The notes: generated by a model not told the origin, from the letters alone. Positions 55,977-63,704 are shown, counted from the stretch's first letter. The stretch is 64,000 bases of DNA from Nannocystis sp. (GCF_016717175.1 NZ_JADKFZ010000004.1); one strand, 5' to 3'. Translations and numbers: made by a program.

Positions 55977-56862
55977 CGGACTTCTCCTCCCGGTCCGCCG
56001 ATACGCTGGATCTGATAGCTCCAGAGGCCGTCGGCGGCGGGCTCGGCACCGCCGCCGACGGTGCGCAGCAGCACGGCGTCTGCGGCGCGTGGCAGGGCCC
56101 GCAGGCGCGCGGCGAGGCGCTCCGGCGCGGAGAGCGTGTCCTCGGCGTTGCTGACATAGACGACCGAGAAGCGCAGATTGCGGGCGCTGGCGGCGGCGGC
56201 GATCGAGGGCATGGAGGTGTCGCCCACGAGGTCGCCGAGCACCAGGTGGATCTCACCATATCGCCAGCGATCGCGGACGAATGTGTAGAGCGCCGGGTCG
56301 CCGAGCCAGGTGCTCGCGCGGCCATCGTGCCGGCGCGCGGCGACCCGGCCCAGGTGCTGCGCGAGCATGGGCCAGACGTCGGCGAGCGAGGCGGGCGGTG
56401 GGTCGGTCGGATCGAGGAGGCCGCCCAGCAGCGCCTCCGGGCTCGCGGCCGCGACGATCCGGCGGCCGAGCTCGCGGTGCAGATCGAGGATCTTGTGATC
56501 GTGATCGATGATATAGGCGCGCTCGGCCCGGCTGACGGCGAGGAGCGTGTAGTTCTGGTCGGCGCCGACGCCGAGGTAGGCGCCGCCGCGATCGGCGATC
56601 GCCGCGGCGAACAGGTCGTGGCGGGCCTCGTTGCTGATGAGATAGTGGGCCCTGGCCTCCGGGACAGGCTCGTCGAGCGGCTCGAGCAGCCACTGCGCCT
56701 GGGCGCCTGGGACGCCTGGGACGCCTGCGACGGGGCGTCGGCGAGGGCCTCGCCCGCGAGCAGCGCCGCGAGCAGCAGCGCCCCGCGGGCCAGCGAAGGC
56801 CCGACGAGGTCGCTGACAATGTCCCGTCGATCAACCACCGAGCGCCTTGCGTCCCGCTTCAC
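55973..56862 (-). pseudogene. Secreted hypothetical protein gene with apparent frameshift between signal-peptide frame and body frame
   Basis: Frame from ATG 56862 gives ..ARGALLLAALLAGEALADAPSQASQ then junk; body frame translated by hand from 56830 gives QWLLEPLDEPVPEARAHYLISNEARHDLFAAAIADRGGAYLGVGADQNYTLLAVSRAERAYIIDHDHKILDLHREL...; switch near 56690-56720 at a gggacgcct x2 repeat. Confidence 0.4.
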
Positions 56863-58808
56863 GGTACATATCGAGCCAGTAGAATATCTCCTCGAGCGGG
56901 AGGCCGAATCGCATGGAGATCGATCGCGGGGCCTCGTCGCCGCGGATCATCGCCAGCACCGCGCGCTCGCGCAGGGCGATCTCTGGGTTCTCGAGGGTGC
57001 GCGGGCGGACCATCGCCCCGAGCGGCGCGGCGCCATAGGGTGCCGGGGCATGGGCGATGTACGCCGGGGCCGCGGGGGCGGCGTCGGGTGGAGCGGTGGG
57101 CGTGGTGCTCATGAATGCCTCGGGTCGTGGTGGTGGCGGCGGCGGCGGTGGTGGCGGCGGCGGCGGTGGTGGCGCCGCGGTGCGGCGCCGGGGGTGGCGC
57201 TGCTGCCGGTGCTGGCGCTGGCGCTGGTGTGCTGGTGCTGGGGGTGGTGGTGGTGACTCTGGTGGTGGCGGTGCTGGTGCTGTCTCGGGCGGTGCTGCTG
57301 CCGTGGTGATCAGCTCGGGCGCGCGAGTCGGCGGCGGCGGGCGGGGGTCTGTCCTGAAGGGCAGGTTGGTCGCTCATGACCGGGAGCCGCGCGGCCGGGT
57401 CGCCGAGCAGCACGTAGCCGCGGAGGTCGTTGCGCTGCATCCACATGCGGCCGAGGACCTGCGGCTGGATCGGGTCGGGCTGGCCGCGGACCAGGGCGTC
57501 ACGCTGGATCTGATAGGAGGCGGTGAGGTCGTTGTTGGTCTCGCGATAGACGCTCATCAGGGCGTCGAGGCCGACGCCGACGCGGCTGCCGGCGAGCAGG
57601 CTGCGCAGGGTGGAGAACATCCGCGAGGCGCGGCTCTTGTTGTTGCCGGGGGCGGTGAAGCTGAAGGTCCACGCGAGGTCCATGTGGCCGATCACGGCGA
57701 GCGGGCCCCGCGGGTTGGCGAGCAGGGCCTGCGGCAGGGCGGCGACGAAGGGGCGGTCGCCGGACCTGGGCAGGCTGCGCAGGACCTCGGCGGCGGGCTG
57801 GCGGCTGCCGCCGTGGTCGGCGAGCTGCGCGAGCCAGGGGTAGAACGCGCTGGCGTCGGGCGTGCCGGCCGCGAAGCAGGCGATGCACATCCAGACGCCG
57901 CCGGGGAGGAAGGGCGCCTCGCGGACGGCGTCGGCGGTGAGCGGCGAATCGAGGCCCAGCGAGAGGGCGCCCTGGAGCGCGCGCTGCTGGTCGGGGGAGC
58001 GCCAGCCCTTGCGCGGCGCGCCGAGGCCGTGGCTGAGCGAGAGCAGCACCGAGGGCACCTCGCTGCCGACGGTGGCGAGCATCTCGTCGGGGCTCCAGTC
58101 GCTGTACGGGATCTCGGCGACGCCCGGGCGGTCGAGCTTGCCGGCCGCCGACCACGCCTCCGCCATTTGCATGCAGGGCTCGACGAGGCGGCTGTAGCCG
58201 GTCTGGATCGCCGAGGTGCCGTCCTGCACGGTGTAGAACAGCGACCGTCCGCGGTCGGCGGGCTCGGCCCGCTCGCGAGCGACGACCTTCTCGGCGTAGT
58301 TGCGAAAGCCCGTGAGGGTCGGGCAGTGGAGGCGGCCGACGAGGGCGCCGTTGGCGAGCGTGTGTTGCAGCTCGAGCGAGACGCCGTCGAGGTCGCCGAG
58401 GATCAGCAGATAGTGCGGGCGCTCCTCCTCGGGCACATCCTCGTCGCGGTGGACGTCGTTGCGCCAGCGGATCGCGGCGGCGCTGTCCATGCCGGGGTCG
58501 ACGCGGTAGATCGTCGGCACAGCGCCCTGCTGCGCGTGGCGGTGGTCGATCAGCGCCCGGATCGCCGCGAGCATGCGATCGCCGTCCTCGCCGCGCGGGG
58601 CGATCACCGCCCAGCGCTGCGCCGGGAGGTCGTTCGGGTCGCGGTCGGGGGCCGCGAGCTCCATCGAATCCCGGCCGCGCGGGCCCTTCTCGGGCGCTGG
58701 CACGTCGGTCAGGGTCGACTCCGGGAGGCCGCCCTCGAGCACGGGGACAAGCTCCTCCGCGTCGGTGATCAGGAGCTGGAGGTCGGTCTGGGCGTCGGCG
58801 TTGCTCAT
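56831..58808 (-). CDS. Clan-CD-like peptidase + low-complexity linker + HTH-like domain (paralog of 38918-40810); frame break inside GC-rich simple repeat
   Basis: VLLSLSHGLGAPRKGW / VWMCIACFAAGTP dyad; ORF 56831-57112 encodes the HTH-like C-terminus homologous to the paralog but in a different frame from 56859-58808; switch within 57110-57330. Confidence 0.55.
57115..57300. repeat. GC-only simple-sequence tract (ggtggtggcggcggcggc-type trinucleotide repeats)
   Basis: Direct inspection; encodes the P/A/T-rich linker. Confidence 0.8.
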
Positions 58809-58820
58809 GGTCGGTGGGCT

Positions 58821-62068: not shown

Positions 62069-62096
62069 ATGCGTGCCACCCGTCGCGTTTCGTCGC

Positions 62097-63704
62097 TCAT
62101 GGTGAAGGCCCCGGGTTCGTATCGAGCTCGATCAGATCCTCGTTGAGGCCGACCAGGCGGAACTCGATCCGGCGATTGGCGGCGCGGGCGGTGTTGCCGT
62201 CGCTGCCGTCGAGCGGCTGCTCGCCGCCGTATCCGGCCGCGCGCAGGCGGCACTCGACGATGCCCTGATCGACCAGCTCGCGGCGCACGGACATCGCCCG
62301 GCGCAGCGAGAGCGCCTTGTTGACGGCCGGGTCGCCGTCCGCGTCGGTGTGGCCCTGGATCTCGATCTTGATGTGCGGGTGCCGCCGGAGCACCTCGGCG
62401 GCCCTGGCGAGGATCGGCTTGGAGCTCTCGCTCAGACGATCGCTGAGGAAGCCGAAGGTGATACCGCGGAGGGTGCCCAGGATCGCGGCGATGTCGGGCG
62501 GGATCACGTCGGGGCAGCCGTTCTCGTCCTCGAAGCCGTTGACGGTCTCGGGGTCCTTCGGGCACCTGTCGATCAGATCGAGCAGGCCGTCGCCGTCCGA
62601 GTCGGGGGCCGGGCAGCCGTTGTACTCCGCGACCCCGACGACGTCGGGGCAGGTGTCCTTGCGGTCCTCGGGGATGTTGTATTGCCCGGCGTCGTAGAAG
62701 CCGTCGCCGTCCTCGTCGACCAGGGGGGGGCAACCGTCGCGCGCGGCCAGGCCGGACTGCTTCGGGCAGCGATCGTCGAGGTTGCGGATGCCGTCGCGGT
62801 CGTCGTCCGGGCAGCCGCGCAGGCTCCTGACGCCGTGCTCGCGGGGGCACGCGTCCTCGCTGCGGGCGCGCTGGCCTGGGTCGGGCACGCCGTCGCGGTC
62901 GGTGTCGAGGTAGGGTCGATGGAGGGTGACGACGAGGCTGGCGAGGACCTCGGTGTGAAAGGTGCGGGAGGCCTCGACGGTATGGGCGAGCCCGAGGTGG
63001 GTGCGGGCGTCGATCCTGCCGCCGATCCAGCGGGTGGCGAAGACCTTGAGGCCGCCGCCGAAGTGGAGCGAGGGGTCGATGTCACGGCCGAGCGCGCCGC
63101 CGGTGCCGAGGAGGCCGCCGCCGACCAGGACGAAGGGCACGACGCTGTAGAGCGGGAGCTGGGCGACGAGCTGTCCGCGCGCGCCGAAGATCCGGGCCGC
63201 GGCGCCGGCGTCGGTGCGCGTCGGGGCGAGCCCGGCCTCGGCCTCGACGCCGAGCAGCGCGAGCGGATAAAAGCCGGCGCGCACGGCGAGGCTCGTTGCG
63301 GCCGGGGCATAGCGGCGCCACGTGGTGTCGTACTGATAGAGCTCGTGGTCGGCGCTCGGGAGGAGGGCGCCGACGCCGACGCCGAGCTCGACGACGTTGC
63401 GCCCCGGTCGCAGCCGGGTGATCCATCGCTCCGGGGTCGCAAGTCGGGACGCGTTGTCCGTCGCCGGCAGGGGTGGGGTCGATGGCGTGGACGACCGGTC
63501 GGGCGTCGGTGTGGCGGCAGATGGTTCGGCGGTCGCAGGCGGGGCCGCGAGGGTCGCCATGGGCGTGACCATGACCAAGAGCCCCACGATCCACCGGATG
63601 CCGCCCCATCGGGCGTAGGCCTCATCGCGGCCGCCGGCGATCACGGGGGCCTGTCGGTCCGCGTCGCGGCGCAGCAGTCGAAGGTCGGTGTCATCTGCGC
63701 TCAT
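62097..63704 (-). CDS. OmpA-family outer-membrane protein: signal peptide, beta-barrel-like N-domain, TSP3 repeats, OmpA C-terminal domain
   Basis: ATG 63704 (MSADDTDLRLL); signal IRWIVGLLVMVTPMATLAAP; DRDGVPD / DDDRDGIRN / DSDGDGLLD repeats; NRRIEFRLV. Confidence 0.75.
   Translation of the reverse strand: MSADDTDLRLLRRDADRQAPVIAGGRDEAYARWGGIRWIVGLLVMVTPMATLAAPPATAEPSAATPTPDRSSTPSTPPLPATDNASRLATPERWITRLRPGRNVVELGVGVGALLPSADHELYQYDTTWRRYAPAATSLAVRAGFYPLALLGVEAEAGLAPTRTDAGAAARIFGARGQLVAQLPLYSVVPFVLVGGGLLGTGGALGRDIDPSLHFGGGLKVFATRWIGGRIDARTHLGLAHTVEASRTFHTEVLASLVVTLHRPYLDTDRDGVPDPGQRARSEDACPREHGVRSLRGCPDDDRDGIRNLDDRCPKQSGLAARDGCPPLVDEDGDGFYDAGQYNIPEDRKDTCPDVVGVAEYNGCPAPDSDGDGLLDLIDRCPKDPETVNGFEDENGCPDVIPPDIAAILGTLRGITFGFLSDRLSESSKPILARAAEVLRRHPHIKIEIQGHTDADGDPAVNKALSLRRAMSVRRELVDQGIVECRLRAAGYGGEQPLDGSDGNTARAANRRIEFRLVGLNEDLIELDTNPGPSP

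Follow-up and report, generated by a model that had tools for sequence, protein, structure and literature searches.

Two-gene modules of a CHAT or caspase-type protease and an nSTAND1 protein (Pfam PF20703), the latter with WD40 repeats, are known from multicellular bacteria (PMC8195603), and bacterial Apaf-1-like STAND proteins with caspase-like proteases have also been described (PMC13581612). Related ternary systems combine an inactive STAND (iSTAND) domain with MoxR and vWA proteins and occur in membrane- or cell-wall-proximal variants (PMC7159879). Moreover, it was shown experimentally that latent effectors encoded beside STAND-linked proteases are activated by proteolysis; these effectors include MBL, α/β-hydrolase, Pepco, EACC1 and metallophosphoesterase proteins, and the same work mentions transmembrane STANDs and peptidoglycan-binding sensors (PMC12642450). 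Here, we analyzed a 64,000-nucleotide (nt) stretch of DNA from Nannocystis sp. (GCF_016717175.1, NZ_JADKFZ010000004.1), in the following termed the window, with positions counted from its first letter. It contains a gene cluster encoding an OmpA-family envelope protein, a CHAT protease with a C-terminal SIR2-like domain and a membrane protein of 415 amino acids (aa) with an inactivated nSTAND1 core. We propose, and assign an even chance to this proposal, that the locus is a membrane-tethered derivative of the common myxobacterial module of caspase-like protease and nSTAND1 protein, i.e., a nucleotide-independent, envelope-facing system similar to nucleotide-binding leucine-rich-repeat receptors (NLRs) and the apoptosome.

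The open reading frames (ORFs) of the cluster all lie on the minus strand in the same direction and are tightly packed. The OmpA gene (62097..63704) has its stop codon ending at 62097 and is separated by a 28-nt spacer from the ATG of the CHAT gene (60065..62068) at position 62068. The CHAT gene in turn shares an ATGA overlap (60065-60068) with the gene of the 415-aa protein (58821..60068), with a GGAGG motif 8 nt upstream, and a 12-nt spacer lies between the stop of the latter at 58821 and the next ATG at 58808. An initial annotation of this DNA had described four co-directional, tightly spaced genes with an ATGA overlap, and these junctions agree with it. Within the cluster, no sigma-70-like promoter and no intrinsic-terminator-like site was found on the coding strand, which agrees with the operon of the annotation. 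Its limits of 56831 and 63704 were, however, probably set too narrowly, as transcription that starts ahead of 63704 is likely to continue to 53592 and to take in a DUF7790 gene and a gene for an RCC1/DUF4215 lipoprotein. All six genes between 53592 and 63704 were assigned, and none of them encodes a MoxR or vWA protein. The window has a G+C content of about 73%, and the relatives of its proteins are found in Nannocystaceae and Polyangia.

In tblastn maps of related contigs, all loci of the membrane type had the genes for OmpA, CHAT-SIR2-like and membrane protein in constant order, at identities from 98% down to 44%. About a dozen related loci were examined; those of the membrane type are on L001-L005, L009-L011, L015-L018, L020 and L022. 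We conclude that the cluster of these three genes is a real, conserved unit and more than a chance arrangement. The 415-aa family comprises 37 clusters at 90% identity, all from Nannocystaceae or Polyangia; among 185,579 species representatives it was present at 10 loci in six to seven metagenome-assembled genomes (MAGs), with two to three copies in each of two MAGs.

The 415-aa protein had no Pfam match at normal threshold, and the nSTAND1 model scored 17.7 bits, below its cut-off of 27.1. The family alignment is divided into a strongly conserved N-terminal domain (residues 1–195), a hydrophobic Ala/Gly-rich segment, a variable acidic and Pro/Thr-containing linker and a C-terminal Cys domain of about 70 aa. 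AlphaFold2 modeled the N-terminal domain as a β-α-β P-loop-type fold with a predicted local distance difference test (pLDDT) score above 90, and the Foldseek matches of this domain were AAA+ proteins, among them ORC/Cdc6. What the initial annotation had taken for a helical cytoplasmic domain is thus an α/β P-loop-type domain; the single transmembrane segment and the N-in orientation of the same annotation were retained.

The origin of this domain became evident from loci of Sorangium and Nannocystis (L006, L007 and L008), where the CHAT-SIR2-like gene is followed, with a 4-nt overlap, by an nSTAND1-WD40 protein of about 1230–1294 aa. Residues 21–191 of the 415-aa protein (59496..60008) matched these partners in BLASTP with 40% identity (E=4e-30, L008) and 37% identity (E=1e-23, L006). 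When both groups were aligned together, YGPSGAGKSS and LDQxEQLL were found in the partners, whereas the membrane family has sequences of the YAPTATKLDA and LYRLEQLL types. Accordingly, Walker A is changed from GPSGAGKS to APTATKLD and variants thereof in all members of the 415-aa family, and Walker B from LDQ to LYR, LHD or LCG. Both motifs are intact in the partners at L006-L008 and in the two nSTAND1 proteins encoded elsewhere in the window. Homology with nSTAND1 stops at about residue 191, and the transmembrane segment follows directly where the partners enter their helical arm. Compared with the partners, the 415-aa protein has no N-terminal NPFPG motif, no helical or winged-helix arms and no WD40 sensor. 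From the loss of Walker A and B together with the end of homology at the helical arm we conclude that it carries a truncated, dead nSTAND1 core; as it fails the nucleoside triphosphatase (NTPase) motifs and has no sensor, it is an nSTAND1 derivative and not a STAND NTPase. The idea of the initial annotation that the membrane protein is coupled to CHAT is much strengthened by this homology with the protein whose gene always follows CHAT-SIR2-like genes elsewhere.

Compared with the CHAT/nSTAND1 modules, the window hence encodes a full-length CHAT-SIR2-like member whose partner has kept the nucleotide-binding core but has been reduced in length to about a third and has lost Walker motifs, NPFPG, arms and WD40 repeats. 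In exchange, it has gained a transmembrane segment that is followed by an acidic tether and, outside the cytoplasm, by an orphan domain rich in Cys. Similarly to the locus described here, iSTAND systems join an inactive STAND domain to caspase-like effectors and are enriched in multicellular bacteria, and some of them are located near the membrane and bind the cell wall by OmpA, PEGA or PASTA domains (PMC7159879). Unlike in these systems, MoxR and vWA genes are lacking here, the OmpA domain resides on a separate outer-envelope protein and not on a fused effector, and the dead domain arose independently from nSTAND1, of which the α/β core alone is kept.

Sequence identities were compared for six loci. 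In five of them, the dead core was more conserved (56–75%) than the Cys domain (44–54%) and the OmpA protein (47–64%), which argues for a retained protein-binding role of the core; in the most distant pair, the values were about equal (48%, 43% and 51%, respectively). A core that binds its partners without NTPase activity could also act as a negative regulator or decoy, i.e., it could sequester CHAT at the membrane or poison the oligomers of full-length nSTAND1 proteins from other loci of the genome. CHAT would then be activated by its release, and the periplasmic domain would be an anchor or stability element and not a sensor. Dominant-negative NLR fragments typically lack the same parts, i.e., Walker A/B, the helical arm and the sensor domains, and possible targets are at hand with two full-length nSTAND1 systems in the same window and full-length CHAT/nSTAND1-WD40 pairs in Nannocystis genomes. 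However, the nSTAND1 proteins of the window are too distant to be found by tblastn with the dead core at E<1e-6, and at every locus a CHAT partner dedicated to the membrane protein is co-translated with it. Moreover, 11 invariant Cys residues and the strict linkage to OmpA point to a specific periplasmic function. We consider a decoy role unlikely.

The predicted single transmembrane segment is Ala/Gly-rich and spans residues ~213–235 (59364..59432). Its 19-aa Kyte-Doolittle maximum was 1.71 in the window copy and 1.64–2.49 across 18 of 18 homologues. In most of these 18, the flanking charge is zero or positive before the segment and zero or negative after it, which fits an N-in orientation, and the 415-aa protein has no N-terminal signal peptide. 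With one transmembrane segment, no signal peptide and 11 invariant Cys residues behind the segment, the natural topology of this bitopic protein is a cytoplasmic N-terminal and a periplasmic C-terminal domain. The extracytoplasmic location proposed for the Cys-rich part is thus supported by topology prediction, in contrast to its count of 14 Cys residues. The whole protein has 15, i.e., C34 in the cytoplasmic part, C222 in the membrane, two in juxtamembrane position and 11 in the folded C-terminal domain.

Between membrane and Cys domain lies a low-complexity periplasmic linker (59040..59363) that is disordered in the AlphaFold2 model and contains the DT repeat noted in the initial annotation. 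The (DT)n repeat is polymorphic in length: compared with L001, a contig of 99% identity, the window differs by 12 nt at position 59155, resulting in proteins of 415 and 411 aa, respectively, and the tether length hence varies between close strains. The Cys-rich domain itself (residues 344–412; 58833..59039) was modeled as a small helical bundle with pLDDT values of 84–96 over about residues 351–400. Pfam gave no match for this domain even at E≤10, nor for the linker. An exhaustive search of 1.84 billion representative proteins with a profile of the Cys domain found nine matches, all from its own family. By these searches the domain is an orphan without detectable homologue outside the 415-aa family.

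The second protein of the core, 667 aa in length, combines two domains. Residues 65–333 (61070..61876) form a CHAT domain of the caspase fold (PF12770, clan CD; Pfam 64.5 bits, cut-off 24), in which the predicted catalytic dyad of His215 (GHG) and Cys264 (EAC) is intact and invariant in 27 homologues. The family is widespread, with 284 clusters in Polyangia. An AlphaFold2 model (pLDDT 77.7) was submitted to Foldseek. Its N-terminal half matched separase, Csx29 and SAVED-CHAT (E 1e-9 to 1e-8) as well as DdvA, and its C-terminal half the SIR2 NADases KomC, ThsA and DSR2 (E 1e-6 to 1e-4). Due to these structural matches, the name CHAT-SIR2 in the initial annotation is correct at the fold level.

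Residues ~376–667 (60068..60943) were assigned as a SIR2_2-like domain from Foldseek, hhalign and a Pfam score for PF13289 of 15.6 bits, which is below the cut-off of 24.5; hhalign against a Pfam-positive CHAT-SIR2_2 paralogue in the window gave 94.7% probability. The SIR2 motifs are altered, as TTNYD is replaced by HTTLLWLP and KLHG by LRLYGG, and this is invariant across 27 homologues. According to the motif register with the Pfam-positive paralogues, Asn is replaced by Leu and His by Tyr. We take the Asn of TTNYD and the His of LHG to be the catalytic residues in ThsA and DSR2. The window protein thus resembles ThsA, DSR2 and KomC in fold and in the order of its SIR2_2 motifs; unlike them, it has Leu and Tyr at the two positions and a sub-threshold Pfam score, and hydrolysis of NAD+ is not expected from its sequence. 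Without catalytic Asn and His, the domain is therefore not to be read as an NADase. We predict that it is non-catalytic and an adaptor or regulatory module. A profile search of PDB sequences with the alignment of the SIR2-like domain yielded nothing relevant.

Two sister systems in the window carry the same module. Sister 1 (20605-27203, minus strand) consists of a 693-aa protease with TIR_2, caspase C14 and SIR2_2 domains (25122-27203; Pfam SIR2_2 E=5e-10) and a large nSTAND1 protein within the ORF 20605-26673, with intact P-loop (APSGAGKSS) and Walker B (LDQFE); the protease stop overlaps the nSTAND1 start by GTGA. Sister 2 (28594-35342, plus strand) starts with a small OmpA-domain lipoprotein (28594-29439), followed by a CHAT-SIR2_2 protein (29476-31518; Pfam SIR2_2 E=1.3e-16) and, with a TTGA overlap, by an nSTAND1 protein with β-propeller that starts at about 31515. 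Together with the ATGA of the membrane-type locus, an overlap between the gene of the protease with SIR2-like domain and that of its nSTAND1-derived partner is therefore found in all three systems of the window. The layout of sister 2 shows that in this genome an OmpA-type gene precedes a canonical CHAT/nSTAND1 pair too. At 27348-27833 (minus strand), 145 nt upstream of sister 1, lies a gene for a secreted Cys-rich protein of 161 aa with a C-terminal tag that resembles MYXO-CTERM by eye. With this gene and the two OmpA genes, a gene for an envelope protein stands ahead of all three protease/STAND modules in the window.

The Pfam SIR2_2 model begins exactly at the TT motif of both sister proteins (STTHD in sister 1, TTASD in sister 2). 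Downstream, the motifs of sister 1 (YKLLG), sister 2 (HLFGH) and the membrane-type locus align as IYKLLGS/IYHLFGH/IFRLYGG and VITESDH/VITENDI/QLTEDDH. The Asn is replaced in three of three in-window copies (by H, A and L, respectively), and so is the His (by L, F and Y). Moreover, the SIR2-like domain is a portable C-terminal module, as it is found on three types of protease, i.e., CHAT, C14 caspase with TIR and, in protein P0253, a C25-like peptidase. P0253 is encoded at L021 (1323-11875) in a set of six genes, most of them with 4-nt overlaps, in the order MoxR-like AAA_5, a 655-aa protein, CHAT (422 aa), CHAT (811 aa), C25-like with dead SIR2-like domain (P0253, 812 aa) and C25-like (479 aa). 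This gene order shows that both protease families and the SIR2-like module are combined in MoxR-type systems, too.

The first gene of the cluster encodes an OmpA-family protein of 535 aa, a length that is the same in three related contigs. The call as OmpA was correct, as the OmpA domain (PF00691) reached 71.3 bits in Pfam (cut-off 27.2). The protein starts with a signal or anchor, followed by a conserved Gly-rich and β-rich region of about 190 aa, then by Cys-containing, Asp-rich repeats similar to thrombospondin type 3 and, C-terminally, by the peptidoglycan-binding OmpA domain. In a Pfam scan of the N-terminal region, a weak TSP_3 match was the only one. In NCBIfam, the matches were at domain level only; for instance, the protein scored 128.6 bits against TraB (NF033763), where the cut-off is 700, and only the repeat and OmpA regions matched. 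A role as TraB or outer-membrane-exchange factor was hence rejected, since the score is far under the cut-off and the match is at domain level. A Zorya-like ZorB was rejected as well, because the OmpA domain alone matches.

Upstream of the OmpA gene, a sigma-54-type promoter (TGGCAG-N5-TTGCA; 63866..63881, plus strand) faces a divergent gene for an extracytoplasmic function (ECF) sigma factor. This promoter is the single match in the window, with 0.03 expected by chance. The ECF sigma gene starts at about 63896-63925 and continues past the window end; it was also called in L001 and L022, and L022 contains a sigma-54 activator gene beyond it. Comparison of the related loci showed that this adjacency is not kept outside close relatives. 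An ECF-type promoter for the operon itself was rejected for want of a convincing match. In the same divergent intergenic region, some 90 bp ahead of the OmpA start (about 90 bp), we noticed a perfect palindrome, ACGGTT-GCA-AACCGT (63790-63804), which is unique in the window (0.01 expected).

The Myxococcus xanthus protein DdvA is an anti-sigma factor that spans the membrane and carries a CHAT domain (PMC11506125). The window locus is likewise myxobacterial and shares with it the theme of a membrane protein beside an ECF sigma factor, and DdvA is among the top structural matches of its CHAT fold. DdvA, however, joins anti-sigma domain, transmembrane helix and CHAT in one chain, whereas the window CHAT is a separate protein that lacks a signal peptide and any hydrophobic segment (its 19-aa Kyte-Doolittle means do not exceed 1.17). 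As, moreover, we detected no anti-sigma domain and the ECF gene adjoins the locus in close relatives only, a DdvA-like anti-sigma factor was rejected.

The envelope proteins in this neighborhood might also be taken to mean that the module is not a defense system at all but a pathway of social myxobacteria for envelope homeostasis, development or cell–cell contact that monitors the OmpA tether between outer membrane and peptidoglycan. Its output would be regulated proteolysis and a transcriptional response via the helix-turn-helix (HTH) protein, perhaps with the neighboring ECF sigma factor, and would overlap mechanistically with the tethered protease module proposed here. Such a pathway would agree with a Cys domain that is conserved and not diversifying, with the OmpA gene being first in all loci, with envelope-related neighbors (DUF7790 with signal peptide, RCC1/DUF4215 lipoprotein) and with the divergent ECF sigma gene and its sigma-54 promoter in close relatives. 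The confinement of the ECF gene to these relatives speaks against it, and so does the origin of the family in nSTAND1/caspase modules, as these are mostly held to be conflict systems. Paralogous copies, two to three in each of two MAGs, and BREX, NACHT and methyltransferase genes near related loci are further arguments against it. We regard such a pathway as rather improbable. The term conflict-type used in the initial annotation fits the two sister systems of protease-SIR2_2 and nSTAND1 in the window as well as the BREX, NACHT and phage-tail-like neighbors at related loci.

Among these neighbors, BrxE and BrxB of BREX were observed at L002 (16311-21236) together with a NACHT-pentapeptide protein; L003 (13628-21176) and L004 both have a cluster with Phage_sheath_1 and Phage_GPD proteins, which we read as contractile-injection-type. 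PADLOC 2.0 recognized no system and gave domain-level matches only, i.e., ZorB via OmpA, and SAVED_CHAT and BovA via CHAT; the membrane protein and the peptidase had no match. In the literature searched, whose coverage is incomplete, we found no description of this combination of CHAT, SIR2 and STAND or of the Cys-rich domain, nor any report that nSTAND1-coupled proteases constantly end in a dead SIR2_2 domain.

For the membrane-tethered protease module, the architecture suggests outside-in control of a cytoplasmic protease, and from the same architecture we infer that the membrane protein relays an envelope cue. The CHAT protein would dock with its SIR2-like domain on the dead NTPase core, which would thereby keep the protease at the inner membrane. 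The disulfide-rich domain, periplasmic on a flexible tether, could report an envelope event via the OmpA protein, peptidoglycan or the periplasmic redox state. Clustering or release of the tethered complex, instead of NTP-driven oligomerization, would then activate CHAT. Active CHAT might cleave neighboring gene products, with a peptidase-HTH protein that contains a long Pro/Ala/Thr linker as the first candidate, which would lead to the action of a second protease, to a transcriptional response or to both, in the context of defense or regulated death. We suggest the dead SIR2 domain as adaptor on the nSTAND1 core, because it is the sole element common to the CHAT, C14 and C25-like proteases here, and because the core is the sole part of nSTAND1 that was kept. 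Cleavage of neighbors by CHAT is proposed on the basis of the latent-effector logic of STAND systems (PMC12642450).

Several points weigh against this proposal. The function of every family member is derived from sequence, and the docking of the CHAT protein on the dead core is an interaction that we infer. The loss of Asn and His from the SIR2-like domain was assigned by motif register and not by structural superposition, and in the hhalign alignment the TT strand was off by one strand. The transmembrane segment of the window copy is, with its Kyte-Doolittle value, moderately hydrophobic and was modeled with low AlphaFold2 confidence. The Cys domain is fairly conserved and not hypervariable, which suits a self or envelope ligand more than a phage protein. 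Finally, the genes for peptidase-HTH and DUF7790 are frameshifted in the window and missing or rearranged in L002/L011 and L003, and a role of their products as CHAT substrates is speculative. We therefore regard these two genes as accessory.

A further-reaching idea, which we put forward tentatively and think doubtful on the whole, is that the locus is an extrinsic-pathway counterpart of the bacterial apoptosome. A STAND switch without nucleotide control and cytoplasmic sensor would have become a transmembrane receptor, whose orphan disulfide-rich ectodomain, together with an OmpA-type protein, would activate the cytoplasmic caspase-like protease from outside. More generally, the dead SIR2 domain would be the dedicated adaptor between three different caspase-fold proteases and nSTAND1 proteins. 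Such an adaptor would parallel the role of CARD and death domains in animals.

The gene downstream of the membrane protein is interrupted in the window. An ORF of 649 aa (56859..58808, minus strand) encodes a putative C25 (gingipain)-like clan-CD peptidase, of which residues 1–476 are conserved and the tail is out of frame. The C-terminal HTH lies in another frame, in an ORF (56831..57112, minus strand) found by tblastn with a paralogue, and 56831-58808 is 1978 nt long, i.e., no multiple of three. The frameshift zone (57193..57347) falls into the Pro/Ala/Thr linker and contains a net excess of 40 nt over the intact alleles. These alleles are found in L010 and L022, two independently assembled metagenomic contigs with about 98.5% identity to the window, where the linker is 40 nt shorter, with C4 instead of the C5 of the window at 57347, and each encodes an unbroken peptidase-linker-HTH protein of 645 aa. 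In the DUF7790 gene (55973..56862, minus strand), the window has a 1-nt deletion at 56703, i.e., a T missing from a 9-nt SQA repeat; after its repair, the product, which has a signal peptide, matched DUF7790 (PF25046) with 162 bits (E=2e-47, cut-off 23). Programmed frameshifting in the peptidase-HTH gene was rejected, as intact alleles exist and the adjoining gene also has a 1-nt indel. A sequencing error or a recent mutation is the more probable cause there. Both frame breaks lie in GC-rich repeats of low complexity and could stem from errors of sequencing or assembly, or from recent pseudogenization.

Two frame-disrupting indels in adjoining genes, together with the absence of catalytic motifs from both SIR2 and STAND domains, could also indicate that the entire locus is a decaying remnant, which lost its function with the NTPase and the sensor and of which the downstream frameshifts are a further sign of erosion. 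In contrast, the three core proteins are intact, and across about a dozen loci, with identities as low as 44–60%, their conservation is strong and includes many invariant non-catalytic residues. The dead SIR2 motifs are found family-wide and are therefore ancestral, not the result of recent decay, and the fourth gene is intact in alleles at 98.5% nucleotide identity. We consider decay of the locus very improbable.

The peptidase belongs to a family of more than 936 clusters across myxobacteria, in which the peptidase either forms the C-terminal end or is followed by an HTH; P0253, with its dead SIR2-like domain, is a member as well. Pfam scored Peptidase_C25 with 22.3–25.3 bits around the cut-off of 23, and the match covers non-catalytic parts of the model. 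H260 (SHG) and C311 (ACF) are invariant in 16 homologues, with the motif pattern SHG...AC(F)xAGTP. The PDB contained no sequence match, including a profile search with the family alignment. For the HTH of the window copy, Pfam gave no match; HTH_28 reached 21.5 bits (cut-off 25) in the paralogue at 38918-40810, and several homologues carry PF13518, PF13551 or PF13384. The clan-CD-like peptidase-HTH protein of the initial annotation was thus retained as a putative His...Cys peptidase with predicted HTH in the intact alleles, whereas in the window the gene is split over two frames. The paralogue that had been pointed out at 38918-40810 is real and shares 40–42% identity over about 480–560 aa.

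DUF7790 matched PDB entry 6ULO (1e-9), which is titled 'uncharacterized protein', and in literature on DUF7790 and 6ULO we found no description of such a system. The last gene of the unit (53592..55976, minus strand) encodes a lipoprotein with DUF4215, a myxobacterial Cys-rich repeat, and an RCC1 β-propeller. In the intact alleles, the stop of the peptidase-HTH gene overlaps the DUF7790 start, and the DUF7790 stop overlaps the lipoprotein start by ATGA. Membership of the lipoprotein in the operon is tentative, because the RCC1/DUF4215 family is abundant in myxobacteria. At most membrane-type loci, a C25-like peptidase, often in two copies and with or without HTH, and DUF7790 are found a few kb away in variable position and orientation; at L002/L011 and L003/L004, they were not present within 10 kb. 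DUF7790 is linked to the core in L005, L010, L013, L015-L018 and L020, and RCC1/DUF4215 genes adjoin it in L002, L003/L004, L008 and L011. At L008, a peptidase-HTH gene (65% identity) adjoins the full-length CHAT/nSTAND1-WD40 pair. At L007 (Sorangium), a metallophosphoesterase follows the corresponding pair and is 57% identical to the one encoded at 40877-43009 of the window.

The latter belongs to a plus-strand cluster (35499-43009) that consists of an Eco57I-like type II N6-adenine methyltransferase, a metallophosphoesterase-like protein, the intact peptidase-HTH paralogue with its HTH in frame and a second metallophosphoesterase. By analogy, it resembles the protease-metallophosphoesterase modules of PMC12642450. 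As in these modules, a sensor-linked protease adjoins putative latent proteins in the window, and the peptidase-HTH paralogue lies between two metallophosphoesterase genes. Unlike in these modules, none of the effector families reported there is found in the operon, where the C25-like peptidase-HTH and DUF7790 proteins are the candidate substrates. Further away in the window (14021-16660, plus strand), an 879-aa ORF has a subtilase (Peptidase_S8) match.

With regard to annotation, members of these families should not be counted as SIR2 NADases or active NTPases. Bacterial NLR/STAND systems are understood as cytoplasmic sensors that activate their effectors by ATP-dependent oligomerization. The locus of Nannocystis sp. 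keeps the effector and the putative docking core and drops both the ATPase chemistry and the cytoplasmic sensor. If our proposal is true, it would be a tractable example of a STAND scaffold rewired for outside-in signaling, and it would explain for what purpose hundreds of caspase-like proteases of myxobacteria carry a conserved but dead SIR2 domain. Moreover, it would provide a model for protease cascades, from CHAT to a C25-like peptidase-HTH protein, in bacteria with multicellular life cycles.

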